Notes: generated from the sequence alone by a model not told the origin. A stretch of 64,000 nucleotides of DNA from Candidatus Saccharimonadota bacterium (GCA_013694995.1 JACDBH010000004.1:128995-192994); one strand, 5' to 3'. Shown: positions 19,682 to 33,886, counted from the first letter of the stretch. Made by a program: numbers and translations.

Positions 19682-19783
19682 AAGCTTTAAGAAACTATAG
19701 CAGATAAATATGAGGCAGGCGAGACAGGACCTGTCTATGTTCCTAATTCCAATAAGTTACTACTGGTGCGCGAGAGAGGCTTG

Positions 19784-19870
19784 CTCACGTTCCGCGAGCC
19801 CAGAACTTTCATGCGTTGAACCAGTTCAACCCTGGAAGGTTCTCTTGCAAAATGCCACTGGCATTTCTCA
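19784..19870 (-). ncRNA. 87-nt conserved tRNA-fused element, copy A
   Basis: Shares sequence and compensatory hairpin changes with 22505-22591 (+) and 33747-33832 (-). Begins TGAG and ends GGAACGTGAG. No ORF. Confidence 0.5.
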
Positions 19871-19935: not shown

Positions 19936-20019
19936 TGGTGCGCGAGAGAGGACTTGAACCTCCACGCCTTGCGGCACTTGCCCCTCAGACAAGCGTGTCT
20001 ACCATTCCACCACTCGCGC
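19936..20019 (-). tRNA. tRNA-Leu(GAG), type II, CCA encoded
   Basis: Acceptor GCGCGAG/CTCGCGC, anticodon arm CTTGT-CTGAGGG-GCAAG, T arm GGAGG-TTCAAGT-CCTCT. TATAAT about 22 nt upstream. Confidence 0.85.
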
Positions 20020-21970: not shown

Positions 21971-22070
21971 TTTGAAAAAGTGAAAGGAGATGACTTGGTG
22001 AAGTTACTAATGATACCGGTCAAACTTGTTTTGCCGGTGACATAGTAACTGCACCATTACACATCGACGC
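21971..22070 (+). promoter_or_regulatory. conserved pre-tRNA leader module, copy 1 (59-nt hairpin 21997-22055)
   Basis: Same architecture as 22388-22479, 40525-40618 and 60010-60101. Helices covary, loop TCAAACTTGTTTTG, and ATTACACATCGACGC abuts the tRNA. Confidence 0.7.
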
Positions 22071-22146
22071 GGCTCTTTAGCTCAGTTGGTAGAGCAGAGG
22101 CCTGAAGAGCCTTGTGTCCCCAGTTCGAGTCTGGGAGGAGCCACCA
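22071..22146 (+). tRNA. tRNA-Phe(GAA), CCA encoded
   Basis: Acceptor GGCTCTT/AGGAGCC, anticodon arm GAGGC-CTGAAGA-GCCTT, T arm CCCAG-TTCGAGT-CTGGG. Confidence 0.85.
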
Positions 22147-22387: not shown

Positions 22388-22479
22388 TTTGAGAGGAGAC
22401 GGCTTGGCGATATTGCCAGGATTGCCGAGCAAACTTGTTTTGGCGGTAATACGGCAAAAACGCCATCACACGTCGACGA
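22388..22479 (+). promoter_or_regulatory. conserved pre-tRNA leader module, copy 2 (59-nt hairpin 22406-22464)
   Basis: TTTGAGAGGAGA..GGCTT, a three-segment hairpin with loop AGCAAACTTGTTTTGG, then ATCACACGTCGACGA abutting tRNA-Gly nt 1. Confidence 0.7.
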
Positions 22480-22504
22480 GCGGGTGTAGCTCAGTTGTTT
22501 AGAG
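22480..22504 (+). pseudogene. 5' fragment (nt 1-25) of tRNA-Gly(GCC), truncated by element copy B
   Basis: GCGGGTGTAGCTCAGTTGTTTAGAG is identical to 22662-22686. A decayed anticodon arm follows at 22592-22613. Confidence 0.7.
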
Positions 22505-22591
22505 TGAGGCCCGCTTGTGGCGGGCCGCAAGGCAAACTTCTGATGAAAACTTGTTTTCAATCATGAAGTTGCGGGGTCGCGGGAACGTGAC
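22505..22591 (+). ncRNA. 87-nt conserved tRNA-fused element, copy B
   Basis: TGAG-GCCCGC/GCGGGC hairpin-CGCAAGG-CTTC...GAAG helix-GTTGCGGGGTCGCGGGAACGTGAC. Homologous to copies A and C. Confidence 0.5.
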
Positions 22592-22661
22592 CTTACTTGC
22601 CAGGCCAAGGAAGCTTTCGTAAGTAACATGATGTACCTTACAATACGAACGAACCAAACAT

Positions 22662-22738
22662 GCGGGTGTAGCTCAGTTGTTTAGAGCGCTTCCTTGCCAA
22701 GGAAGAGGTCGAGAGTTAGAGTCTCTTCACCCGCACCA
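22662..22738 (+). tRNA. tRNA-Gly(GCC), CCA encoded, unusual D loop/T loop
   Basis: Acceptor GCGGGTG/CACCCGC, anticodon arm CTTCC-TTGCCAA-GGAAG, D loop AGTTGTTTA (no GG), T arm GAGAG-TTAGAGT-CTCTT. Confidence 0.85.
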
Positions 22739-24272
22739 AATGGGACTTATCTGTAATGGATAGGTCTTTTTTATTGCCCGCCAATCTGATGAGCTCGCTT
22801 ATTTCGGGGGTGTAAACATTTTTGTTGGCATCCAGCCTAAAACCAGCAGGGAAAACGATTTGTTTAAACCTCAACCTGTTTTCATGTGGTGTCAGGGGGT
22901 CTAGGAACTTTTGGCTCGTGTCACCCACAAAGCCAAAGGCAAACTTTAAGAACCGTTCGTAGTCATCCTCGGCTTTACGAGTGAGCCTGTGCAGTTGGTC
23001 TTCAATGTCTTCAGCTTCCTGTTTTCGTTTAGCTATGTTTGTAAGTATGTCGGACTTAATAGCGGCATTCTCGGGGTCTGTGGCTGCTTCAACCTGTTGG
23101 CTAATACTCTCCTGTAGGCTGGCTAGCTTGTGTCGTAGACGTACAGCCTCTTGCTGGTTCTCGCTCTCACGGCGTTTCCAGACAATATCAAGTGCTTTTG
23201 TGAGGTCAGATACACCAGCATCGGTAATAGGGTTGTTCCTAAGCTGCTTAGTAATTTTATCGTGCATTTCGCCACGGGCTAAGGCGCGCTTACAGGCACG
23301 GCACCTGTACTTTTCGTATATCTTAGGGCTTTTCCCGTTCGTTATGTCCACGCCTACAATGCGGTTGTACTGTTTACCCTCACAAACATCACAGTGAATT
23401 ATGTTGTTGAGGGGGTACTTAGGATTGCCGTTTTTGCGGGGACCAGTTTGGTTTTTCTGCTTCCCTCCAAATATACGCAACAGTTCATGGTGCTGTTCAA
23501 GGGTGATAAGCGGTTCGTGCAGCCCGTTAAGGTTATGGACTTTAACTTGTTTATCAATTGCAACACCGCCAGCGTAATAGATGTCGGTGGCTATCTTACG
23601 AAACTTGTCCATTTTATACAGGGAATGTCCTCTCATGAACTCGCTACTGTTAAGGTTTATCAAGCCCTGGGTTGGCGTGACCCGCTTGGTGACTATATCA
23701 AGCAATACCTTCCTTAGAGCCTGCCCACGCACAGGGTGAGGCTTGTGGATGCCACGTTCATCACCTCGCATGTAGCCTGGCTTAGGGCAAAACGTGTAGC
23801 GACCCTCTTGCAGGGCTTTTGTTTGACCGTTAATTGACTTACGTTGCCGTTCCTCGTTGCTACCTTCAGCAGATAGGTACTTGGTAAACTTGAGTAGCTT
23901 GGCTGCAAGGTCACCTTTGTTTAGCTCAGCGTCTGAGGCGTACCAGACTGTTACCCCTAACTGGCGAAAAGTGACTTCAAAAAACGCAGCTTCATCAATT
24001 GACCGCATAAATCTATCTGGTTCGTCTACAATAATGTACTTAATGCGCTTATCTTTTTTGCAGCGTACTATCATTTGGTTTAGGTCTTTACGGTCTACGT
24101 TCGTACCCCGCTTGCTTGAGACGCTGCCAGACCACCAGCAGTCATCAGGTATCATTACGCCTAATTCATTAGCCGCTTTTAATACAACTTCTCTCTGACG
24201 ATTAAGACTGTTATTCTCCAGTTGCTCGGTACTAGAGACTCTGCACAGTGCTATGGCGAGATGCTTAGGCAT
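22716..24272 (-). CDS. large serine recombinase (integrase type)
   Basis: N-terminal resolvase catalytic block AIALCRVSSTEQ...SL.RQ, a recombinase domain, the Cys cluster CDVC..//..CRAC (zinc ribbon), and a C-terminal coiled coil. 518 aa. Confidence 0.9.
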   Translation of the reverse strand: MPKHLAIALCRVSSTEQLENNSLNRQREVVLKAANELGVMIPDDCWWSGSVSSKRGTNVDRKDLNQMIVRCKKDKRIKYIIVDEPDRFMRSIDEAAFFEVTFRQLGVTVWYASDAELNKGDLAAKLLKFTKYLSAEGSNEERQRKSINGQTKALQEGRYTFCPKPGYMRGDERGIHKPHPVRGQALRKVLLDIVTKRVTPTQGLINLNSSEFMRGHSLYKMDKFRKIATDIYYAGGVAIDKQVKVHNLNGLHEPLITLEQHHELLRIFGGKQKNQTGPRKNGNPKYPLNNIIHCDVCEGKQYNRIVGVDITNGKSPKIYEKYRCRACKRALARGEMHDKITKQLRNNPITDAGVSDLTKALDIVWKRRESENQQEAVRLRHKLASLQESISQQVEAATDPENAAIKSDILTNIAKRKQEAEDIEDQLHRLTRKAEDDYERFLKFAFGFVGDTSQKFLDPLTPHENRLRFKQIVFPAGFRLDANKNVYTPEISELIRLAGNKKDLSITDKSHLVRVKRL

Positions 24273-24355
24273 GATTACCCCTTACTAATACAAGAGGGAG
24301 CTTCTCGGACAAGGTCAATGCACGACCTAAAGAAGCTCCCGCTAGTAATAATAAA

Positions 24356-24517
24356 TTAGTTAGTCTCGGTAGATTGTGCATTGTTTTGTCCATCCTCTAT
24401 TGTACCTTTTTCCCTCTGTTCTTCCTCTTTGTACATATCATAAATCAGCTCTGCTAGTGCCAGAGCGTCCTTCTTTCTTGCCTCTTTGGTGGTAAGTGGT
24501 AGCTTGGAATACGACAT
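24356..24517 (-). CDS. small acidic protein (53 aa), unknown function; possible recombination directionality or regulatory factor
   Basis: ORF below the track cutoff (MSYSKLPLTTKEARKKDALALAELIYDMYKEEEQ...). It sits just upstream of the recombinase and is followed by hairpin GGGAGCTTCT/AGAAGCTCCC. Weak RBS. Confidence 0.3.
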   Translation of the reverse strand: MSYSKLPLTTKEARKKDALALAELIYDMYKEEEQREKGTIEDGQNNAQSTETN

Positions 24518-24866
24518 TGGAGCGTTTCTGCTCCAGGAAAATAAAAAAGCCCTGGAGTCTTACCCACTTCCAGGGACGTGTCAGCTACATTTACTTTGAT
24601 GGGGCTGTTGAAGTTATTATACCACTATTTGCCAGACACAATCTAGGTAGTGATACAGAGGTGATATAATTGCAACAAGTGGTAAATCCACTCAGACCTA
24701 AACCACAGCTTTAGCAGTGGCATGGTTGATAAAACCTACGTAAATGCAATCCCGTCATTGGGTATCTATTTACGTAGGTCATAACTGGAAACGGTTGTGG
24801 CGGCTTCGGTCGCGTCTCAGTGGCGGGTTTTTATTTTGACCGCTGCTTATAACAAGGAGCATCGTA

Positions 24867-25028
24867 ATGGGCAAAGTCATTAAAAAGATAATTGTATGGG
24901 TCGTAATACTGTTAGGCATAACTCAGGTAGTCGCGGGTGAACCGCCTGTAAAGGCAGTGGGTGTGGTGTTGATACTGGCAATGATTTTCTGGGATAATGC
25001 AGGACGCTTGAAGAAGAAAAATGACTAA
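24867..25028 (+). CDS. small 2-TM membrane protein (53 aa)
   Basis: AAGGAG 7 nt upstream of the ATG. Stop overlaps the next start in an ATGA-type arrangement. Hydrophobic IIVWVVILLGI and VGVVLILAMIFW. Confidence 0.5.
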   Translation: MGKVIKKIIVWVVILLGITQVVAGEPPVKAVGVVLILAMIFWDNAGRLKKKND

Positions 25029-25455
25029 CAATAACGGCTGGAATATATCACCTGAACAGAGAGCTGCTGAAGCCAAAGATGTTGCGTCTCAAAAGAAAAT
25101 CAAGATTGCTTACGTGGTTATCCTGGCTGCAATACTCATCCCGCTATTACTTTTCAATAGCCCGTATAGTCCTCTCCATAAAGAGAGTAGTGTTAGCTAT
25201 GGCATGAGCCGCGAACAGGTAGACCGTATGAAGGCACAAGACCTTATTGATAATGACGATGTAGATATCTTTCTTGAATCATGCGAGGAAAACACATCCG
25301 AGAAGACCAGAGAAGCTATGGCAAAGCGGTGCGGGTGCGAGTTCAATGTCCTGGCAAATGTAGCCGAAACGTATAACAAGAAGTTCAGTGATGTAATATC
25401 AGACTCAGATACGGCAGTACTTTTGCTTGTCAAAGAGCGATGCCCTGCAACTTAG
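25021..25455 (+). CDS. single-pass membrane protein, unknown function
   Basis: 144 aa with TM segment IAYVVILAAILIPLLLF. Island cargo. Confidence 0.5.
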   Translation: MTNNNGWNISPEQRAAEAKDVASQKKIKIAYVVILAAILIPLLLFNSPYSPLHKESSVSYGMSREQVDRMKAQDLIDNDDVDIFLESCEENTSEKTREAMAKRCGCEFNVLANVAETYNKKFSDVISDSDTAVLLLVKERCPAT

Positions 25456-25468
25456 GAGAGTAGAGACA

Positions 25469-25729
25469 GTGACCAACAAAAACATTAGGGCTACAGATGA
25501 TTATGAAGATGAGCTTAAACTTGCCAAGGAATTGTTCTTCAAGGCGTGTAAACTTGGCTTTGAAACTAATAAGCTCACGGTAGGGTTAATCCAAAGAAGA
25601 CTACAAATAACTTACATGATGGCTATGTTTTTACTGAATGAAATAGAGAGACGAAATATTGCAGCTCGTGTAGGAGATACATACATATTTAGAATGTGTG
25701 TAAAAAGTATTGAAGACTGTAAGTGGTAA
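25469..25729 (+). CDS. winged-helix DNA-binding protein resembling the FtsK gamma domain
   Basis: LTVGLIQRRLQITYMMAMFLLNEIERRNI resembles the FtsK-gamma pattern S.S.LQRRL.IGY.RAARL...E..G. A GTG start follows AGGAGAG; the track start at 25427 is an alternative. Confidence 0.45.
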   Translation: MTNKNIRATDDYEDELKLAKELFFKACKLGFETNKLTVGLIQRRLQITYMMAMFLLNEIERRNIAARVGDTYIFRMCVKSIEDCKW

Positions 25730-25803
25730 CCACTACTGCGCTTCAGTTGCGATTAAAAGTTAAGTGCACTTATTTAACCATGCTGATGATATATTAAAAG
25801 CAT

Positions 25804-26508
25804 ATGGGACGCTCAGGTATTTTAGCTTCAATATTTCTAAGACCCTTATCAAAGTTAGGTAAGCCCTCGCAGCCTGATATAAAGGTTACTTTTACGTTCC
25901 ATCCCATTGTTTGTAAGGCTGAATACTGGTGCCGCAAAGAATCAATGCTTGGTGACGAGTGGATGATAACTACCTTCGCTTATTATCTGGGTAGGTATCT
26001 CAGTATTTGCGATGACCGACAGCGCGAGATGATGGCAGAGTTACTTTCTGAACTTTTCAATGTTAAAGATGAGAAGGATATGCATATCCTGGCAGAACTC
26101 TGTTACGAAAATCTGCTCCCAACACTTACGGATGATGAAAGAAAAGCGGCTGCTGGACTTTTCGGTATGTTCCCACCCGTACGCCTTTACTATCAGAATA
26201 GGAATATGGAAGTACCTGATGAAAAATTTAGCACTTATATTTATCAGATGGTTATGACATCTAAAGGCATGCAAACCCATTTAGAATTGGGCGTAGCTGA
26301 TATGATATTGTTTCCGCTCTCAGTAGTACATCTTTATACGTTCGTGTCTGGTGAAGCATCTACGAAAAACAGTCGTTTATTATCAGAACTGTCCAATGAG
26401 ATACTCCTTGATTATTACAACAACGACCAGCCGCTAAGCTGGATGCATGCTGGTATCAATAAGATGTTGAAAAAGTATCCTCAAATCGTTGAGAAACTCA
26501 AAAAATAA
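25804..26508 (+). CDS. hypothetical protein (island cargo)
   Basis: 234-aa ORF with no recognisable motif. Confidence 0.45.
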   Translation: MGRSGILASIFLRPLSKLGKPSQPDIKVTFTFHPIVCKAEYWCRKESMLGDEWMITTFAYYLGRYLSICDDRQREMMAELLSELFNVKDEKDMHILAELCYENLLPTLTDDERKAAAGLFGMFPPVRLYYQNRNMEVPDEKFSTYIYQMVMTSKGMQTHLELGVADMILFPLSVVHLYTFVSGEASTKNSRLLSELSNEILLDYYNNDQPLSWMHAGINKMLKKYPQIVEKLKK

Positions 26509-26649
26509 TCCTACTTTTTAAGGGGGTACGTACACGGAAGGGTATATTCCCTCAGCCTATATAGGTGTATGGGTACCCTTATCGTTTCTGGGGGTGGGGG
26601 GTGTCCCTGGCTATATTTGCAGCCCTGGTGTTTCATAATTCAAATAGGC

Positions 26650-27210
26650 TTAGTCAGCTATTTTTTGGGCTTGGCTACCTTGTACTTCGCCAAGTTCGCC
26701 TGGAGTCCCTGGTGTATCTGCTTTGGGGTTTTGCCCTTCGTTGAAATGAGGGTGATTAGTCGTTTCATAAGTCTGATTATACTCTCCAGTGGTGTAATGG
26801 GGTCTGTAAGTTATCACCTCAGGCTCACTACCAACCGTGATAACTACAGTCTGCTGTTGCTGAGTAATATCTACTTGAGTGCGTAGCATACCGTAGTGTT
26901 TCATCATCAGCTCAATAGCTTTTAGCCTTGCCGAAGGACGCATGTCAGTATCCTCTATGAAGGTTTTGAGTGTTGCTAATATCCTCTCGGGTGTAAAGTG
27001 GCGCGCGTTAGTAGCCTCGTACTGTCTTAACCAGCCTGGCTTCGTTCTGGATAGCTCTCGTGCTGTGTGGTGACTAAAGCCACTGGTAATAGCAGATTGA
27101 TAGCAGTTGCCAAAGGACGGGCTTTTGGGATTAAAGTAGCAATCAATAAACCTCTGCTGCCTAGGATTATTTATTACTGACGATACGTTTAGCAATCGGT
27201 TCGTAGCCAT
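26650..27210 (-). CDS. phage terminase small subunit-like DNA-binding protein
   Basis: N-terminus PRQQRFIDCYF.....FGNCYQSAITSGFSHHTARE fits the Terminase_2 HTH pattern (Q..F..EY....NAT.AA..AGYS..TA). Confidence 0.5.
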   Translation of the reverse strand: MATNRLLNVSSVINNPRQQRFIDCYFNPKSPSFGNCYQSAITSGFSHHTARELSRTKPGWLRQYEATNARHFTPERILATLKTFIEDTDMRPSARLKAIELMMKHYGMLRTQVDITQQQQTVVITVGSEPEVITYRPHYTTGEYNQTYETTNHPHFNEGQNPKADTPGTPGELGEVQGSQAQKIAD

Positions 27211-27462
27211 TGCTTCCTCCTATAAGTATTATATTTATCTTTCGGCTTTGTGTATATTGCAGGGTTTCTATAAGGCTGTTTAATGGGTAAGGTGTAGGGC
27301 ATTGTGGCGGGGTTCAAGGTTAGGTGATAGTTGAGGATGTAACTCCCAGCTCTTACCTTGATAACAAGTACTCCTTATAAGGAACTGCCAGGATATCACG
27401 CCAGCGATTGATTTCCACCCCTAGTTCGTGTAACTTTTCGCCCACGTATCGCACCATTGAGG

Positions 27463-27993
27463 TTATACCGAACGGCGACGTCGAGCAGCCAGTAATGCGC
27501 TGCCTATCAGTATTAAAGTGGTCGAAGCTATTAGTTCTCCGTTCACTATTTTTTCCTGTGTACCAGTTTCGGGCAATATCACTTGCTTTGGTTTCACAAC
27601 TGCGCTCACTGTAGGTATGGTTTCCGGCGTAGAAGTAGTCGTAGTCGCTACATCACAGTCTGAAGGAAAGTAGCCGCTAACATAGAAAAAGCCATTTTTT
27701 GCACATAACTGAGTACCTACCGGCACGCCCGTATCGGCTATAGTAGTTGTAGTTTCAGGTTCGTCGTTACAATTGGCAGGAGGTTTCACCGCACCGCCAA
27801 TTGCATATAAATTACCATCGACAGGGCAAAAGACATCTCCCGCCGGTATATAGTAAAAAAAAGTTGTCGATGTTTCGGGTGGTGCGGTTGTAGTGGTAGT
27901 TGGATCAGTATCAACAGGTACAGTTAAAGGCAAGGCCTCAACGGGAGTCATTTGCCAGAGAATGTTATTAGGTAATTGATTAAAATTCTTCAT
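27463..27993 (-). CDS. small Thr-rich surface protein with C-terminal LPXTG sorting signal (LPETG-TM-RRRR), no N-terminal signal peptide
   Basis: The C-terminus is ILPETG followed by a hydrophobic stretch and RRRRSV. Start set at MKNFNQLP (AAGGA upstream), matching paralog 33923-34501. Two Cys-x-Cys loop modules. Confidence 0.65.
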   Translation of the reverse strand: MKNFNQLPNNILWQMTPVEALPLTVPVDTDPTTTTTAPPETSTTFFYYIPAGDVFCPVDGNLYAIGGAVKPPANCNDEPETTTTIADTGVPVGTQLCAKNGFFYVSGYFPSDCDVATTTTSTPETIPTVSAVVKPKQVILPETGTQEKIVNGELIASTTLILIGSALLAARRRRSV

Positions 27994-28167
27994 TAACCAT
28001 CCTTTAATTTCATTTAACCACAGTTTCATATAAAAGTCAATAGCTTACGCTTTAAATTACATAAACACTAACATCACAGATACGTGCGTAGCTTTTACAT
28101 TTTATAATGATTGTGTTTTGTTGGCTACTGTGATATCAATATAACTAATAAGGGCGATGTTCAGCAT

Positions 28168-31100
28168 ATGTTTATGAGAAAAAAATCAAAAAAAGTTCAA
28201 ACGCAATTTAAAGAAGAACAAATCAATCCTGGCCTAATCTTGCCTACACCCATAAATCAAAGAAAGTCCCGGTTTAGACTTTATTCACCCTCAGGAAAGG
28301 GCTGGAAATCCAAAGCTTTAATTTTCATGTTAGCTTTTGGAGTTATTGGCGGCTTCTTCTTATATAGAAGCTTTGCCGAAACCCCTTATGGCGACATACT
28401 AACTGGAGCTGACCAATTGGTGTTACGGTACGAACTGCCCTACCCGCATAATTATATTGAGAACGAATTTGAACAAGTTCCGCCACCTGCCACACTTTTA
28501 TATGGAAATGGTCTAATGCTCTGCCACGAATATGAGAAGTCTCGTGCCGACACCCAAACAAGTCCGCTAATGTTTTTAAAGGAGCGTCAGCTTGCGTCGG
28601 GTGAAATTGCGATACTCGTTGATCAAATACGAGCTCTGGGCTTTGATGATATGTTTACCAGGACGCTACCTGATACTATTCCTCCGGCGGTAGACGAAAC
28701 ACCTAGCATTAGCCTGTTTACCACTAGCGGCGAAAGGGAAGTTGTTCTTTATCCTACTGAAAAGTTAGACAAATTTGATGCAATAGCTGCGCTCCTAAGC
28801 AGTGAGTGCAAAAAGGCAAAGACTGATTTTGATCCTGATGAAGTTATCTTGGAAAGTATCAAACTGCCGGATATGGCTGAAAGTACAGTGGCTACCTTGC
28901 CAAATTTGTCAGTATCAGTTGCTGAAAAGGACAACGATATCCAATCCAAAGTCCTTAGTGGCGATGAAGCTAAAAATATTAAAGGCCTAATAGCTAAAGG
29001 GAATAAAATATATAAAGCACCAGACGGCAAAAAAATTAAAGTAAGGGTAATACCGAAAGTACCCGATTACCAAATTTCGAAACGTTTCAGTAAATCTAGC
29101 GGTGGAAACGTGGCCAGTGCAGCTAATATATACAAAGTCCGTTTCGTATATATATATGCTGCTGATCAAGCTCCTCCAACCTCAGATCAACTTAGTGGCT
29201 TTGTTGAGTTGATGAACTCATTGCCGGGCTATTACAGTAACAATGTGAATAAGCCTTTTACATCCCAGGGGCTAACAGTGATGCAAGCAACCAAAAACGT
29301 GGCAGATTATCATGTATGTCCAGATAACAAATGCGTAGATACAAATACAGGTGAGTACATGGGCTCACTGGCTACATATAAAAACTTAGAACTAGATAGT
29401 AATATAAAAAAAGCTGGTATAAGTACGGTGGTAGCATATAACTGGAACTACGGGAGCGAAGTATGTAGGGGCTGGGGAGGCCCTACTCATCCTGAATCTG
29501 AATTTTTTAATTACGTTGGTGTCGAAAATTATGGTGTAGCAGCCTTTGCTGCCGCAAAGTGTATGGGATCTACTTCTCTATATCCTCCCCCGGGTAACCC
29601 AAGTCCAAATCTGAGACACAAGGTGGGCGCGCATGAAGTCGGCCATACTTTTGGGTTAGGTCATGACACAGAACTAACAATGATGCATAGGGGCGGTGTC
29701 ACTATGACTACTTTTGGTTATGGTATTCCACTGAATCCCGTCCAGGCTACCCTACTTCGTGATTTAAGCCTATTCTTTCGTGAAGAAGCTGGGGCGGTGT
29801 ATGAACCTGGACCAGTTACATCAGGTTCAACCTTTGTCTCCATAAACCCAGCACGCCTACTTGAAACACGTCCAAACCTTTCAACTGTCGATGGGAATTT
29901 TAATGGCATAAACAGCCTAGTAGCCGGCTCAACTACAAAATTACAGGTTGGTGGCCGGGCCGGAATGGCCACCAATGCTAGAGCAGCTGCGCTCAATGTT
30001 ACAGCCATTAACCCAATAGCAGCGGGTTATATGGTAGTTTTTCCATGTGATACTGGGCAACCAAAAACTTCAAACGTTAATTATAATCCTGGCATTACAG
30101 TTTCAAATTTTGTTATTTCAAGGTTAGACGGTAACGGACAGGTCTGCATATATACTAATAATGCCATAGATTTGGTAGTAGATATAAATGGGGTGTTTCC
30201 ATCTGGTTCTACTACATCATATACCAACATAAGCCCTGTCCGCATACTAGAAACGCGGGGAGGCCTATTAACTGAAGATGGGCAGTTTAATGGCATTAAC
30301 CGTTTGCCGGCAGGTTCAGTTACCCAGTTAACGGTTAATGGCCGTGTCGGTATACCCTCTAATGCTTCTGCTGTATCCTTAAATGCTACAGTTATAGATC
30401 CAGCTGCCGATGGGTTTATGGTTATTTACCCTTGCAATACCTCTCCGCCTTCTACTTCAAGTATTAACTATATGAAAAGTAGTAATATATCGAATGCTGT
30501 TATATCAAAAGTAGGCAATGGCAGTGTCTGTATCTATACCAATAACGCAATTGATCTGGTAGTTGATATTAATGGTGCGTTTAATGACTACACGTCATTT
30601 AAAAGTGTTCCGCCTAAGCGCTTACTGGAAACTAGGCCTGGGCTTATTACCTATGATGGTATTTCGCAAGGTATTAACAGGCTTGGAGCTGGCTCAATAA
30701 CCGAATTCCAGGTTGCCGGAAGGGCTGAAGTACCCAATGATGCCCTAGCAACGGCATTGAATGTTACAGTTATTAATGCCCAGTACGACGGTTTCATGAC
30801 AGTATATCCTTGTGGTATCCCTTTACCGAAGACTTCCAATGTCAACTTTAACGCCAATACCACCGTTTCTATAGCTGCATTTTCGAAAATAGGGGTAGGT
30901 AGCAGTGCTGGCAAAGTCTGCCTTTATACAAATGTTGCTACGGACGCTGTAGTTGATGTAAATGGCGCGTTTGTGATTTCAGATGGGTCGCAATCCGCTC
31001 TAACCGCGGTTGATCCTGTCGGGGTTTCTCCCGCCCCACCTACTACCGTAGTAGCCTGCCCGTCAGGCTACATAGGCACTTATCCAAACTGTGTCATACC

Positions 31101-33708
31101 AGTTCCTCCAGACACCATTGCAAGAAAGATGTTTACCTGGGTTAGTAACAGTGCAACTGCTCCAAACATTCCGGATTATCCTTACTGTGCTCGCATGGAT
31201 GCTTCTGCCACGGACCCGCATACTTGGGCTGACAACTGGCTATGCAGCCACTTCGATTATGGCTTAAGGCTTTATTTAGCTACTGCACCACTTAATCATG
31301 CCTCCCTGTATCCAACCAGTTCGATTTTCATGGCTGAGCCGGCGCATAAAGATGCAGGATGGGGCGATTCCTCAATGGGGACTACAAGGACTGCTTACTT
31401 CCTGCAATCCGACAGAAATACCCCAAGCGATTTTGTATCAAAATTTACCTGGAGCTATGTAGGTTCTACTGAGATAGCGGCAGGCTTACCTGACGCGCGC
31501 TCCTGTACTGCATGGAGTGAACCATCCGAACCAGCCAGCTCGATGTGGAGCGATAACTACCTATGTGGGCCTTGGTGGTTCCAAACTATACCCCCAACGC
31601 CACCAGTAGTCTCGATAACGGCGCCAGCTAGTAATTCTACCGTGAGCAACATTGTCACCATCAGTGCCAATGCAACTGATGCTAAAGGGATCTCAGTCGT
31701 CCAGTTCAAGTTGGATGGCAATAACCTCGGCGTCGAAGATGCGACGGCACCTTATTCGATAAACTGGGACAGTAAAACGGTGAACAGTGGCAACCATACC
31801 CTCACGGCGGTAGCGCGTAATGTCAGCGGACTTAGCACAACTTCAGCACCCGTTACAGTGAATGTCCAATTACCCCCACCACCACAAAGCACAGCACAGG
31901 GCACAATAACTAGTGCAGACTGCGCAATCATAAGGGGAACTGCCTACGATGCAGACTGGCCAGCAGGTGGAATACGAATTGATATACGAATCGATTCTTC
32001 TTACGCGTCCAATCCCCGTCCACCAGATGGAACCGTTTACACCGACTCAGCCGGTAATTGGTCTTGGTCAATCCCTAATACATCGGCTTATAAAACCAGT
32101 CGAGCTCGTTCTATATATTTTGACATATTGGGCAAAAACTCCTCAGGTGTTGGTGATGCTTGGGTAGTTGGCATTAACTCAGGTAGTCCAACTTACGGCC
32201 CTTGCCAAGTTGCAATGTGTAGTTCTATTCAAGTCAGCATGGATAATGGGGTTACATACGGAAGTAACATTGGTTATAACGGTAGCGCCAATGTCACTGG
32301 TGGTAAGGCATTCAAAGTGAAAATGGCGATGAATAACCTAGCTCCTGTGGTTGGCGGTTCTACATGGAATACAGGATCTGCCAGTCAACAGGTACATGTC
32401 GGAACAGACGGAACAGATACTAGGAATGACTTTAAGGCAATAACTGGTTTAGATTATAGGACATCCGAAAATTCACCGGCTACCGTATACCCTGGCCAAG
32501 TAGGGTACTTCGTATGGGGAATTACTGCTCCGAATGCCAACACAACGCAGTATAAAAACTACACTATGCGTTTCCAGGCTGTGCAGGAATGGGTTGAATG
32601 GTTTAATACGGCTGGTTCTTCGAATACAGGAAACTGCCAGTTTAATATAAACGTCACAGCTCCGATTATAAGCAAATGCTCGGGCGTAACAATTTATAGT
32701 GACTCAAACTTCATAGGCGGTAGTTCAATTTTAAGTGCAGGATACAGTACAACGCGGATTCCTCTTGGTAGTGATACTATCAGCTCAGCACGCATACCAA
32801 AGGGATGTAAATTACGGCTGTTCCTGAATAATGTATATAGCGGAGCAATGCATGATTTAACAAGTGATTGGCCAGGCAGTGTATCTGACCCATGGAATGA
32901 CAAAGCCTCAGCACTGCAAGTCACAGAATCAGATACGATTACGGCAACAACGCCAATAACATGTCCCTCAAATAGCGTGACGCTATTCAAAGATTCCGGT
33001 TACTTAGGGTCATCGAAAATATTAAGTAATGGTAAGTATGATGTGAGGCAGCTTTCAGGTATTGGGGATAATAGGCTAAGCTCAGTTAAAGTACCTCTTG
33101 GCTGTAAGGTTATCCTATATCAAAATAGCGGTTTTGGCGGTGCAACCAAAGTACTAAACGGCGACTGGACAAGCACTGCTGATGATCCATGGAACGATAT
33201 TACTTCTAGTATTGAAGTCAAAAACCGTGCTACGGCTGTGGCTTCGACTGAGATGTTACAGAACCCTGGGTTTGAGCAGGGCAATGTAGTTTGGACAACA
33301 TCTGTTCCGAGTGGTGTAGTGTTCAACTACAATGTGTTATCTACAGCCGGACAAGCAAAAGAAGGAACTAAGTATATGGAAGCTAACTCTACACCATATG
33401 GAGCATCGCTATATCAGGTCGTCACAGCAAATCAAGAGCCAGGTTCTACATATAGATGGTCGGCTTGGGTAAGGTCGCCATCTTGTACTCCCGTAAATGG
33501 ACATGTTACTCTTTGGAGTGTGTGGGCAACAGTCACTAATTCCTACACCGGCTTCACAGCTGATTGTACTTGGCGCCAAATAACGACCACCTTCACTGCA
33601 ACTAATACCGGGGACACACAGTTCCTGCCATATATAACGTTACTTACGGGAGGCGTAAATCTGGATATTGATTCAGCTAGCTTGGTTAAAATTAATTACG
33701 TAGAGTAA
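28168..33708 (+). CDS. giant membrane-anchored surface protein: metzincin-motif protease region, 3x ~115-aa repeats, Ig-like, beta/gamma-crystallin-like x2, CBM-like C-terminus
   Basis: Start MFMRKKSKK matches the paralog. TM segment ALIFMLAFGVIGGFFLY. HEVGHTFGLGHD at 29632-29667 followed by MMH. Repeats run LETRP...LNVT...YPC...TSN.N...D.VVD.NGAF. C-terminal NPGFEQG..W block. Confidence 0.75.
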   Translation: MFMRKKSKKVQTQFKEEQINPGLILPTPINQRKSRFRLYSPSGKGWKSKALIFMLAFGVIGGFFLYRSFAETPYGDILTGADQLVLRYELPYPHNYIENEFEQVPPPATLLYGNGLMLCHEYEKSRADTQTSPLMFLKERQLASGEIAILVDQIRALGFDDMFTRTLPDTIPPAVDETPSISLFTTSGEREVVLYPTEKLDKFDAIAALLSSECKKAKTDFDPDEVILESIKLPDMAESTVATLPNLSVSVAEKDNDIQSKVLSGDEAKNIKGLIAKGNKIYKAPDGKKIKVRVIPKVPDYQISKRFSKSSGGNVASAANIYKVRFVYIYAADQAPPTSDQLSGFVELMNSLPGYYSNNVNKPFTSQGLTVMQATKNVADYHVCPDNKCVDTNTGEYMGSLATYKNLELDSNIKKAGISTVVAYNWNYGSEVCRGWGGPTHPESEFFNYVGVENYGVAAFAAAKCMGSTSLYPPPGNPSPNLRHKVGAHEVGHTFGLGHDTELTMMHRGGVTMTTFGYGIPLNPVQATLLRDLSLFFREEAGAVYEPGPVTSGSTFVSINPARLLETRPNLSTVDGNFNGINSLVAGSTTKLQVGGRAGMATNARAAALNVTAINPIAAGYMVVFPCDTGQPKTSNVNYNPGITVSNFVISRLDGNGQVCIYTNNAIDLVVDINGVFPSGSTTSYTNISPVRILETRGGLLTEDGQFNGINRLPAGSVTQLTVNGRVGIPSNASAVSLNATVIDPAADGFMVIYPCNTSPPSTSSINYMKSSNISNAVISKVGNGSVCIYTNNAIDLVVDINGAFNDYTSFKSVPPKRLLETRPGLITYDGISQGINRLGAGSITEFQVAGRAEVPNDALATALNVTVINAQYDGFMTVYPCGIPLPKTSNVNFNANTTVSIAAFSKIGVGSSAGKVCLYTNVATDAVVDVNGAFVISDGSQSALTAVDPVGVSPAPPTTVVACPSGYIGTYPNCVIPVPPDTIARKMFTWVSNSATAPNIPDYPYCARMDASATDPHTWADNWLCSHFDYGLRLYLATAPLNHASLYPTSSIFMAEPAHKDAGWGDSSMGTTRTAYFLQSDRNTPSDFVSKFTWSYVGSTEIAAGLPDARSCTAWSEPSEPASSMWSDNYLCGPWWFQTIPPTPPVVSITAPASNSTVSNIVTISANATDAKGISVVQFKLDGNNLGVEDATAPYSINWDSKTVNSGNHTLTAVARNVSGLSTTSAPVTVNVQLPPPPQSTAQGTITSADCAIIRGTAYDADWPAGGIRIDIRIDSSYASNPRPPDGTVYTDSAGNWSWSIPNTSAYKTSRARSIYFDILGKNSSGVGDAWVVGINSGSPTYGPCQVAMCSSIQVSMDNGVTYGSNIGYNGSANVTGGKAFKVKMAMNNLAPVVGGSTWNTGSASQQVHVGTDGTDTRNDFKAITGLDYRTSENSPATVYPGQVGYFVWGITAPNANTTQYKNYTMRFQAVQEWVEWFNTAGSSNTGNCQFNINVTAPIISKCSGVTIYSDSNFIGGSSILSAGYSTTRIPLGSDTISSARIPKGCKLRLFLNNVYSGAMHDLTSDWPGSVSDPWNDKASALQVTESDTITATTPITCPSNSVTLFKDSGYLGSSKILSNGKYDVRQLSGIGDNRLSSVKVPLGCKVILYQNSGFGGATKVLNGDWTSTADDPWNDITSSIEVKNRATAVASTEMLQNPGFEQGNVVWTTSVPSGVVFNYNVLSTAGQAKEGTKYMEANSTPYGASLYQVVTANQEPGSTYRWSAWVRSPSCTPVNGHVTLWSVWATVTNSYTGFTADCTWRQITTTFTATNTGDTQFLPYITLLTGGVNLDIDSASLVKINYVE

Positions 33709-33724
33709 GACAAGTTTTAATATA

Positions 33725-33886
33725 TGGTGCGGGTTGAAGAGACTCTCCCACGTTCCGCGGGCCCGAAACTTCATCTTTACAGGCTAGTTTGTAAGAGAAG
33801 ATTTCCTTGCGAATTGCCACCGGCAATTCTCACTCTCGACCTCGTCCTTGGCAAGGATGCGCTCTAAACAACTGAGCTAAACCCGC
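33725..33886 (-). tRNA. tRNA-Gly(GCC)-like gene interrupted in the T loop by the 86-nt element (intron-like, or a pseudogene)
   Basis: The 54 nt at 33886-33833 match tRNA-Gly through the T-stem 5' strand. The 22 nt at 33746-33725 are AGAGTCTCTTCAACCCGCACCA. TATAAT at 33908-33903. Confidence 0.5.
33747..33832 (-). ncRNA. 86-nt conserved tRNA-fused element, copy C
   Basis: TGAG-AATTGCC/GGCAATT hairpin-CGCAAGG-CTTC...GAAG-GTTTCGGGCCCGCGGAACGTGGG. Homologous to copies A and B. Confidence 0.5.

Follow-up and report, generated by a model that had tools for sequence, protein, structure and literature searches.

A 4.7-kb integrative element of Saccharibacteria whose large serine recombinase gene probably spans its own attachment site

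A 64,000-nucleotide stretch from a Candidatus Saccharimonadota bacterium (GCA_013694995.1, JACDBH010000004.1:128995-192994), here called the window and numbered from its first letter, carries a compact island beside a gene for tRNA-Gly. An original prediction, made from the sequence alone, had described a serine-recombinase island with the layout of a phage satellite. We compared this island with its relatives and consider it highly probable that positions 22739-27456 form a 4.7-kb integrative mobile element, a member of a family widespread in Saccharibacteria, in which the gene for the large serine recombinase (LSR) spans the element's own attachment (att) site. The features on which this reading turns are the following.

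22662-22738, plus strand: host tRNA-Gly(GCC), identified by ARAGORN and by Rfam (tRNA, 70 bits).
22716-24272, minus strand: LSR, chromosomal truncated form, 518 aa (Pfam, PHROG).
22732-22738: attL core CGCACCA, within the tRNA 3' end, a direct repeat with 27450-27456.
22742-22775, plus strand: terminator-like hairpin with T-run (terminator scan), antisense within the LSR codons NKKDLSITDKS.
24273-24355, minus strand: conserved hairpin of about 75 nt, from the small-ORF stop to the LSR start (inverted repeat I2, folding, RNAalifold).
24356-24517, minus strand: small acidic open reading frame (ORF), 53 aa, directly upstream of the LSR and co-oriented with it (tblastn).
27338-27352, minus strand: conserved non-coding end motif, directly following the stop of the tail exon (about 40 right ends aligned).
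27353-27456, minus strand: predicted detached last exon of the LSR gene (the tail exon), stop at 27353-27355 (nhmmer copies in about 40 loci).
27450-27456: attR core CGCACCA, where homology with the related locus L001 ends (att comparison).
Predicted attP junction of this element: GTATCGCACCA joined to AATGGGACTTATC, also given as CCCACGTATCGCACCA joined to AATGGGACTTATCTG.
Predicted empty-site junction of this element: CACCCGCACCA joined to TTGAGGTTATACC, also given as CTCTTCACCCGCACCA joined to TTGAGGTTATACCGAA.

The 518-aa ORF had been read as a large serine recombinase, and it is one. Its residues 6-158 match the Resolvase catalytic domain PF00239 (E 8.7e-12; 45.8 bits, gathering score 23.3), and the protein matches the integrase family phrog_95 (E 1e-29). 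The database protein P0010, a full-length homologue 79% identical to the window LSR, matches over residues 220-383 the recombinase and zinc-ribbon domains of the A118 integrase (phmmer, PDB 4KIS and 6DNW, E about 8e-5 to 9e-5). An AlphaFold2 model of P0010, with a mean predicted local distance difference test score (pLDDT) of 84.5, shows beta elements at 293-333 and long helices at 352-432. The best Foldseek matches of this model are full-length serine integrase complexes (9Y66, E 2.5e-13; Bxb1, 9IU2; 4KIS), and it resembles SPbeta-type and Bxb1 integrase structures. Catalytic, recombinase, zinc-ribbon and coiled-coil parts are all represented.

The 3' end of the LSR gene runs antisense into the tRNA, with an overlap of 23 nt. 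The T loop contains TTA, which on the complementary strand supplies TAA, the stop codon of the LSR. Residues 1-514 of the protein come from the element; the final four (VKRL) and the stop come from the antisense strand of the acceptor/T arm and T loop of the tRNA, so that the window LSR ends in ...LVRVKRL. Could this be a coincidence? A genome scan yielded 52 LSR loci in metagenome-assembled genomes (MAGs) of Saccharimonadia, 36-79% identical to the window LSR, and in most of these relatives, too, tRNA-Gly(GCC) lies antisense to the LSR 3' end. Since the tRNA-derived ending (L/M)VRVxxL followed by a stop recurs in 35 of the 49 relatives from other genomes with a readable C-terminus, the overlap is not due to chance. 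The original prediction had placed the stop codon and the last 23 nt of the gene in the tRNA; ARAGORN, Rfam and the relatives bear this out. The attachment site (attB, now attL) is the 3' end of tRNA-Gly(GCC), and the tRNA is intact after integration. The coupling of recombinase C-terminus and tRNA 3' end that had been proposed is upheld, as part of the mechanism. The hairpin at 22742-22775 appears, by its position, to stand in for the displaced terminator of tRNA-Gly; in the attL and attP of relatives a hairpin and T-run, with other stems, likewise lie 3' of the CCA.

Several observations concern this tRNA and its junction with the LSR. The D loop of tRNA-Gly(GCC) lacks the usual GG (AGUUGUUUA), and the T loop reads UUAGAGU, not UUCGAAU, with A at the expected C56; TTAGAGT is the loop in all relatives fetched, and the two unusual loops may be a co-varying tertiary pair. 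In many assemblies a contig ends at the LSR/tRNA-Gly junction or only a few bases from it (L007, L008, L012, L041, L189 and others), a pattern expected from population heterogeneity or repeats there. Distant LSR relatives (36-44% identity; L053, L057, L047/L049/L050) sit at sites other than tRNA-Gly; in L053 (5689-7336) the LSR ORF extends into tRNA-Ala(UGC), which suggests that distant clades have been retargeted to other tRNAs. A left end at 22505, with a tRNA carried by the element, was suggested by a 25-nt copy of the tRNA 5' end (22480-22504) and by homology with L001 up to 22487. It was ruled out because the same tRNA-Gly leader is present in the LSR-free loci L069, L084, L101, L117 and L118; the leader is therefore a host feature.

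Where does the element end on its other side? Nucleotide comparison with relatives revealed two conserved blocks, the LSR side and the last ~120 nt (27338-27456), with unrelated cargo between them. Homology with L001 stops exactly after ...CGCACCA at 27456, which is the true end of the element and the right border that had been predicted. The resemblance to a tRNA acceptor/CCA end claimed for this border did not stand: a displaced tRNA 3' end is ruled out, as GCACCA alone is shared and the remainder is the coding tail of the LSR. In a side-by-side alignment of att sites GCACCA is the sole sequence common to attB, attP, attL and attR family-wide, and comparison delimits the shared crossover core to these 6-7 bp; LSRs as a family recombine short attP and attB sites through a crossover of 2 bp. 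Joining 27456 to 22739 restores an LSR gene of 545 codons that ends in ...SHLVR-YVGEKLHELGVEINRWRDILAVPYKEYLLSR and a stop.

A profile of the right end (nhmmer) found copies in about 40 related loci, all oriented like the LSR and located upstream of its start; across the family the nearest copy lies 2.0-9.0 kb from that start. Every copy begins with TGGTGC(A/G), and the peptide consensus in the LSR frame is LVQYVGKSLHEIRDEIARWRDILAVPYQEYLLSR, then a stop. This frame is open in 39 of 41 copies, the other two frames in 2-3 of 41. Positional entropy at codon positions 1, 2 and 3 amounts to 0.73, 0.63 and 1.30 bits, the third position being about twice as variable as the others. Tail variants track LSR clades (YVGEKLHE...PYKEYLLS is common to the window, L001, L006, L007 and L008), and the database proteins P0010, P0046 and P0074 (544-546 aa) carry the same tail fused to the LSR. 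In the P0010 model the tail is a helix (residues 507-545, pLDDT 76-88) preceded by a low-confidence linker. Downstream of the stop, the end motif has the family consensus GAGCTGGGAGTTACAC on the LSR strand; the window copy ends in T. Judged by its codon pattern, 27353-27456 is a coding, conserved C-terminus of the LSR. Because the right end encodes a tail in the LSR frame, attP lies inside the LSR gene, and integration, as reconstructed from these sequences, swaps a 31-residue LSR tail for four residues encoded by the tRNA. A 12-bp palindrome at 27372-27383, also pointed out in the original prediction, exists, but as a site it is ruled out: it lies in the VPYKEY codons and is not palindromic in relatives.

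Does this family move? Comparison with relatives lacking the island, which the original prediction had proposed, provided four occupied/empty pairs in which the outer flank is flush with the CCA of an LSR-free tRNA-Gly (L023/L073, L008/L075, L009/L178, L035/L092). These empty sites, and the ends seen in relatives, uphold the compact serine-recombinase island at tRNA-Gly. We scanned metagenomes for tRNA-Gly 3' ends not followed by A and retrieved 120 loci, 19 with an LSR, 7 with a tail-exon copy but no LSR, and 94 with neither. Among loci of the last class with at least 2 kb downstream, 33 of 55 have a terminator-like hairpin no more than 75 nt from the CCA; at occupied loci, 22 of 36 right ends adjoin a terminator-like hairpin oriented for the tRNA. 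One locus, L060/L061, is a tandem array. Its distal LSR continues in frame into the proximal element's tail exon, to a length of 544 aa, and the distal element has its own tail exon at its own right end; the proximal LSR (519 aa) overlaps tRNA-Gly. Another, L059, is a 6,537-bp contig with a 21-nt terminal overlap that closes to a 6,516-bp circle with a full-length LSR; closure also completes an ORF cut by the contig end, with an ATG start. Junctions of attP type are present in L058, L059 and L060.

Islands that lie between tRNA-Gly and a tail-exon copy and lack an LSR were also observed (L089, L124, L146, L158, L179, L183, L129; a few of about 0.6 kb). From their layout these would be remnants or cis-mobilisable cassettes.

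We propose that in the excised circle 27456 and 22739 would be joined and the LSR complete (545 aa), ending in a helix-forming tail of about 31 residues. Recombination of GCACCA in attP with the identical 3' end of tRNA-Gly(GCC) would place the element directly after the tRNA and ahead of the tRNA's terminator. That tRNA would be kept whole and given a new terminator antisense within the 3' codons of the LSR gene. The latter would be severed after codon 514 and closed by four codons and a stop that the antisense strand of the tRNA supplies, while its tail exon would be displaced 3.2 kb, to the opposite end of the island. Saccharibacteria are known for competence, and the element may possibly have spread, without transfer genes of its own, by natural transformation.

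How much of this can be read from the available sequences? Comparison with relatives shows where the element inserts and where it ends, that its LSR gene is split and the detached exon is under coding constraint, and that the family is mobile, accretes at the tRNA, leaves LSR-less remnants and has a circular form. Some points weigh against the proposed element. The mobility evidence comes entirely from relatives; an empty site, circle or junction read of the window element itself was not found. An exact look-up of a 327-aa flank protein, intended to find the empty site in close relatives, returned the same genome only, and a metagenome scan with this protein gave no match. The 21-nt terminal overlap of L059 could also come from a tandem copy. 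To our knowledge, canonical LSRs do not recombine attP with attL, and the L060/L061 array resembles exactly such a product. Finally, an LPXTG gene ends in the flank at 27457, where most relatives have the tRNA terminator. The region outside the right end (27463-33708) encodes an LPXTG-anchored protein of 188 aa and a surface protein of 1865 aa. It reaches as far as an inverted pseudo-tRNA-Gly and might have been inserted earlier, but 27463-33708 showed no end motif.

Could the LSR instead be a fixed host gene, serving a resident, integron-like platform in which cassettes bounded by recombination sites of about 120 nt are shuffled? Multiple co-oriented right-end motifs do lie upstream of one LSR (three in L002, three in L038, two in L007), the cargo is highly variable, and the LSR-less islands named above, L129 aside, lie between tRNA and motif copy, as a platform would have it. 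The majority of sampled tRNA-Gly(GCC) loci, however, have no LSR at all, two LSR genes occur within tandem arrays, and the circular form carries the LSR itself. The motif of ~120 nt encodes the tail of the LSR itself and changes in step with the clade of the adjacent LSR, as expected if whole elements were inserted and then lost their LSR to leave cis-mobilisable remnants. An integron would have a tyrosine integrase (IntI), an attI site and promoterless cassettes bounded by attC; the recombinase here is a serine enzyme, and the arrays can hold whole LSR-bearing elements, features that do not fit. We judge a platform of this kind to be very improbable.

Among the genes of the window island, the LSR and the small acidic ORF are the only ones conserved in 33 related islands. 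The small ORF has tblastn matches at the same position in 30 other loci, with the conserved core KDALALAELIYDMYKEE...GQNNAQ; it has no Pfam or PHROG match. It is a candidate directionality or regulatory factor, or LSR cofactor. Between it and the LSR, 17 of 20 intergenic sequences fold into a hairpin with a minimum free energy of -31 to -40 kcal/mol, and compensatory changes affect 11 of 25 pairs (RNAalifold). GUAAGG in the Shine-Dalgarno sequence of the LSR is paired at the base of the stem, the 5' strand of which starts directly after the small-ORF stop. A hairpin that covers the LSR ribosome-binding site and abuts the stop of the preceding ORF suggests translational coupling; the structure may thus tie translation of the LSR to that of the small acidic ORF.

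The exchange of C-termini in the proposed element may alter the activity or directionality of the LSR. The full-length protein would, for example, integrate, and the truncated chromosomal form would be inert or would need the small acidic ORF for excision. More speculatively, and on present evidence rather unlikely, the exchange could be a built-in, topology-dependent switch in which only the circle encodes a full-length, integration-competent LSR. Under such a switch, the tail-less LSR could be inactive, could excise with the help of the small acidic protein, or could be so relaxed that attL, too, serves as a target; this last property would account for tandem accretion.

The remainder of the island is cargo with its leader.

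24662-24670, plus strand: putative extended -10 box TGATATAAT, cargo-operon promoter (sequence).
24695-24813, plus strand: LOOT RNA (Rfam RF03000), 5' leader of the cargo operon (cmscan).
24867-25028, plus strand: hydrophobic peptide, 53 aa, first cargo ORF, about 50 nt past LOOT (ORF list).
25021-25455, plus strand: 144-aa protein, island-specific, one membrane span predicted by eye (ORF list).
25427-25729, plus strand: winged-helix FtsK-gamma-like protein, island-specific (Pfam FtsK_gamma).
25804-26508, plus strand: 234-aa protein, island-specific (ORF list).
26650-27210, minus strand: 186-aa orphan weakly resembling the terminase small subunit (TerS-like; Terminase_2, phrog_51).

The original prediction had listed the acidic 53-aa ORF, the plus-strand ORFs and the box at 24662-24670, all of which are present. 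It had also noted an 11-bp inverted repeat (24735-24745/24768-24778). The repeat is real, but instead of being operator-like it forms one helix of LOOT, which was detected over model positions 1-121 of 121 with 75.4 bits (gathering score 46.4). With LOOT models R1 and R2, built in this analysis, we searched 0.95 Mb of LSR loci and obtained 17 strong matches, nearly all in divergent orientation to the LSR and 300-1400 nt ahead of its start; about a third of the islands contain one. A further 0.63 Mb of other tRNA-Gly loci gave a single match, in a locus that also bears an LSR. Most of the 16 other LOOT-bearing islands have a TATAAT-like box about 25-30 nt 5' of LOOT, and nearly all LOOT-bearing islands have a GGCGGGCUUUUU...GCCGCC hairpin 3' of it. 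Where the first cargo ORF is recognisable, its ribosome-binding site and start lie about 50 nt past LOOT, and it often encodes a hydrophobic peptide of about 50 aa. N-termini clearly similar to that of the window peptide follow LOOT in L007, L014 and L046, and other small hydrophobic ORFs do so in L011, L018, L040 and L059. Position and restriction to LSR loci mark LOOT as an optional, element-specific leader of the cargo operon, which may control this operon in cis. We found no description of its genomic context in the literature searched, where one paper treats LOOT as an example of covariation.

The window cargo is essentially absent from other islands, apart from weak relatives of the small membrane ORF (L007) and of the TerS-like ORF (L056, 29% identity). 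Neither the 144-aa nor the 234-aa protein has a Pfam or PHROG match or a relative in other islands. The winged-helix protein, predicted to be FtsK-gamma-like, falls just below the gathering score of FtsK_gamma (29.7 bits against 30.6; E 5e-7), so that this assignment is narrowly short of the profile threshold; its sole PDB match, weak, is the FtsK gamma domain 2J5P (E 1.2). For the TerS-like protein, Terminase_2 matches the N-terminal 38 residues only, at 20.4 bits under a gathering score of 26.1; phrog_51 (terminase small subunit) matches with E 5e-9 and gives the prediction partial support. Its homologues among 5.8 billion proteins number two, the protein itself and a paralogue named from the same organism; it has no relatives in IMG/VR and no informative PDB match. 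The paralogue, P0122 (83% identical), is encoded on another contig (323,694 bp) of the same MAG, as judged from the H0V99_ tags.

Does a TerS-like gene next to an integrase make this a satellite? This was the central suggestion of the original prediction, namely an element of the phage-inducible chromosomal island (PICI) type that would excise on helper infection and use the TerS-like protein to redirect helper packaging. The integrase beside a tRNA, the small size, the lack of structural genes and the phrog_51 match all fit, and known satellites also bear defence hotspots. We surveyed 150 cargo ORFs from 33 islands, which matched 57 Pfam families, and inspected the 25 commonest. Defence families prevail: GmrSD, Mrr, Shedu SduA, Avs2 and Pycsar, followed by QatA, PifA and KAP NTPases as well as Eco57I and EcoRI methylases. 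No replication, capsid, packaging or phage structural family is among these 25. Pfam and PHROG searches of the window island likewise gave no replication module and no capsid or packaging gene; the original prediction had noted the absence of capsid, portal, large terminase and replication genes. A primase, an AlpA/Stl-type regulator and a capsid-remodelling gene are missing as well, the TerS-like gene is an orphan and not a family feature, and in three IMG/VR contigs the LSR has the same tRNA layout with no phage genes beside it. A PICI-type satellite, with its layout not borne out by the two-gene conserved core, is therefore a poor candidate, and we attach little probability to it. With defence genes dominating the cargo and no satellite core genes, the family is a defence-cargo integrative element; the window island's own cargo may, by analogy, also be anti-phage. 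A decayed prophage, whose LSR and TerS-like ORF would be left from a temperate phage and now be immobile, would agree with the lack of demonstrated activity of the window copy, but is extremely unlikely given that both ends are intact, the detached tail exon is still open and conserved, family members are consistently small, the two-gene core recurs throughout, a 6.5-kb circle exists, and phage structural genes are missing from the commonest cargo.

The window contains further tRNA-linked elements. E88 is a three-hairpin element of about 85-88 nt with compensatory changes in 25 of 32 pairs, present at 22505-22592 (plus strand), 33747-33832 (minus) and 19785-19870 (minus), and also in L001, L006, L015, L016, L033, L065, L069, L084, L101, L117, L118 and L182. 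Rfam contains no match to it, and every copy adjoins fragments of tRNA genes. Most commonly the order is promoter, tRNA-Gly nt 1-25, E88, CCTTACTTGCCAGGCCAAGGAAGC, about 45 nt, then intact tRNA-Gly, an arrangement also seen in LSR-free loci; E88 belongs to the host and does not depend on the island. Possible identities are an intron-like element, a leader RNA and the scar of another tRNA-targeting element. Pattern searches of IMG/VR gave 90 matches, about the estimated chance number, none of which fits the E88 profile, and a gapped pattern, which was too strict, had no match over the fetched loci. At 33725-33886 (minus strand) lies an inverted copy of tRNA-Gly(GCC) that ARAGORN does not detect, about 95% identical over nt 1-55 and 57-77, its T loop split by E88. 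A single mismatch in the anticodon stem and an additional base close to the acceptor stem mark it as a probable pseudogene. We ruled it out as a second att site or inversion partner, because the 85 nt inserted into it are E88, which is unrelated, and because the LSR crosses over at the CCA and not in the T loop. T arms of tRNA-Gly interrupted by E88 also lie just beyond the right end of the island in L006 (3446-3528) and L017. Next to tRNA-Leu(GAG) (19936-20019, minus strand), an E88 copy lies 64 nt downstream of the intact gene and is followed by a duplicate of the tRNA 3' end (AAGCCTCTCTCGCGCACCA; 19765-19784, minus strand); L026 has the same layout. Finally, 22016-22088, which precedes tRNA-Phe, and 22425-22497, which precedes the tRNA-Gly leader, share 73% identity over 73 nt (CAAACTTGTTTTG...ACACATCGACG), probably as a shared tRNA-gene promoter or leader module.

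Why should such an island be of interest? Saccharibacteria are ultra-small episymbionts in which gene flow is poorly understood, and the proposed element would be a widespread, simple vehicle of two core genes that carries defence systems to a single tRNA site, where it builds up variable islands. Literature searches returned no description of this family in Saccharibacteria. The orphan Rfam RNA LOOT gains a precise genomic home and a testable role as a cargo leader. LSRs are among the major tools of genome engineering, with their one-way reaction a central question; an LSR gene rewritten by its own reaction would provide a natural pair of full-length and truncated forms in which to study the effects of the C-terminal helix on integration and excision. 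If real, a topology switch would be a natural form of LSR directionality control that goes beyond sole reliance on a separate directionality factor. Split LSR genes will systematically be called wrongly by annotation pipelines, and the detached exon will be missed.

An attP within the integrase gene is familiar from the myxophage Mx8 (intP/attP) and from SSV1-type integrases: their coding sequence is changed or split on integration, and the Mx8 integrase acquires another C-terminus, with different behaviour of the form encoded by the prophage. Those enzymes are viral tyrosine recombinases, whereas the present one is a serine recombinase of a small non-viral element. PICI and P4-like satellites share with it the integrase beside a tRNA, the small size and, in some families, variable defence cargo, but are defined by replication, regulation and packaging-hijack modules that the Saccharibacteria islands lack. 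The tycheposons of Prochlorococcus are also small cargo elements at tRNA genes, in which repeated integration pushes older elements outward, and their accretion, as here, leaves degenerate remnants and builds variable islands (bioRxiv 10.1101/2020.12.28.424599). In contrast to the serine recombinase described here, 910 of 937 tycheposons use tyrosine recombinases; many have replication genes, some are PICI-like with terS and a capsid gene, and their ends are partial tRNA repeats instead of a split integrase gene (10.1101/2020.12.28.424599).

The closest precedent is the ssrA-specific islands of Dehalococcoides with their LSR, DsiB (McMurdie et al. 2011, PMC3146451). Like the present element, these islands are driven by an LSR and integrate in the 3' portion of a tRNA-like gene, with the recombinase at attL on the reverse strand and its 3' end always overlapping attL; they form tandem arrays, and some are integrase-less, cis-mobilisable remnants (PMC3146451). 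McMurdie et al. already speculated that the DsiB gene is complete only on the circle or beside another island (PMC3146451). The target there is ssrA, with insertion inferred in the T loop, as opposed to the CCA end of tRNA-Gly(GCC), and a six-gene integration module including a second, small serine recombinase takes the place of our two-gene core (PMC3146451). The overlapping C-terminal part in Dehalococcoides is reported to be divergent and probably non-functional (PMC3146451), whereas the detached tail described here is conserved and under coding constraint. The Saccharibacteria element differs further in having LOOT, here tied to one element family and one position, and the hairpin at the LSR ribosome-binding site among its parts.

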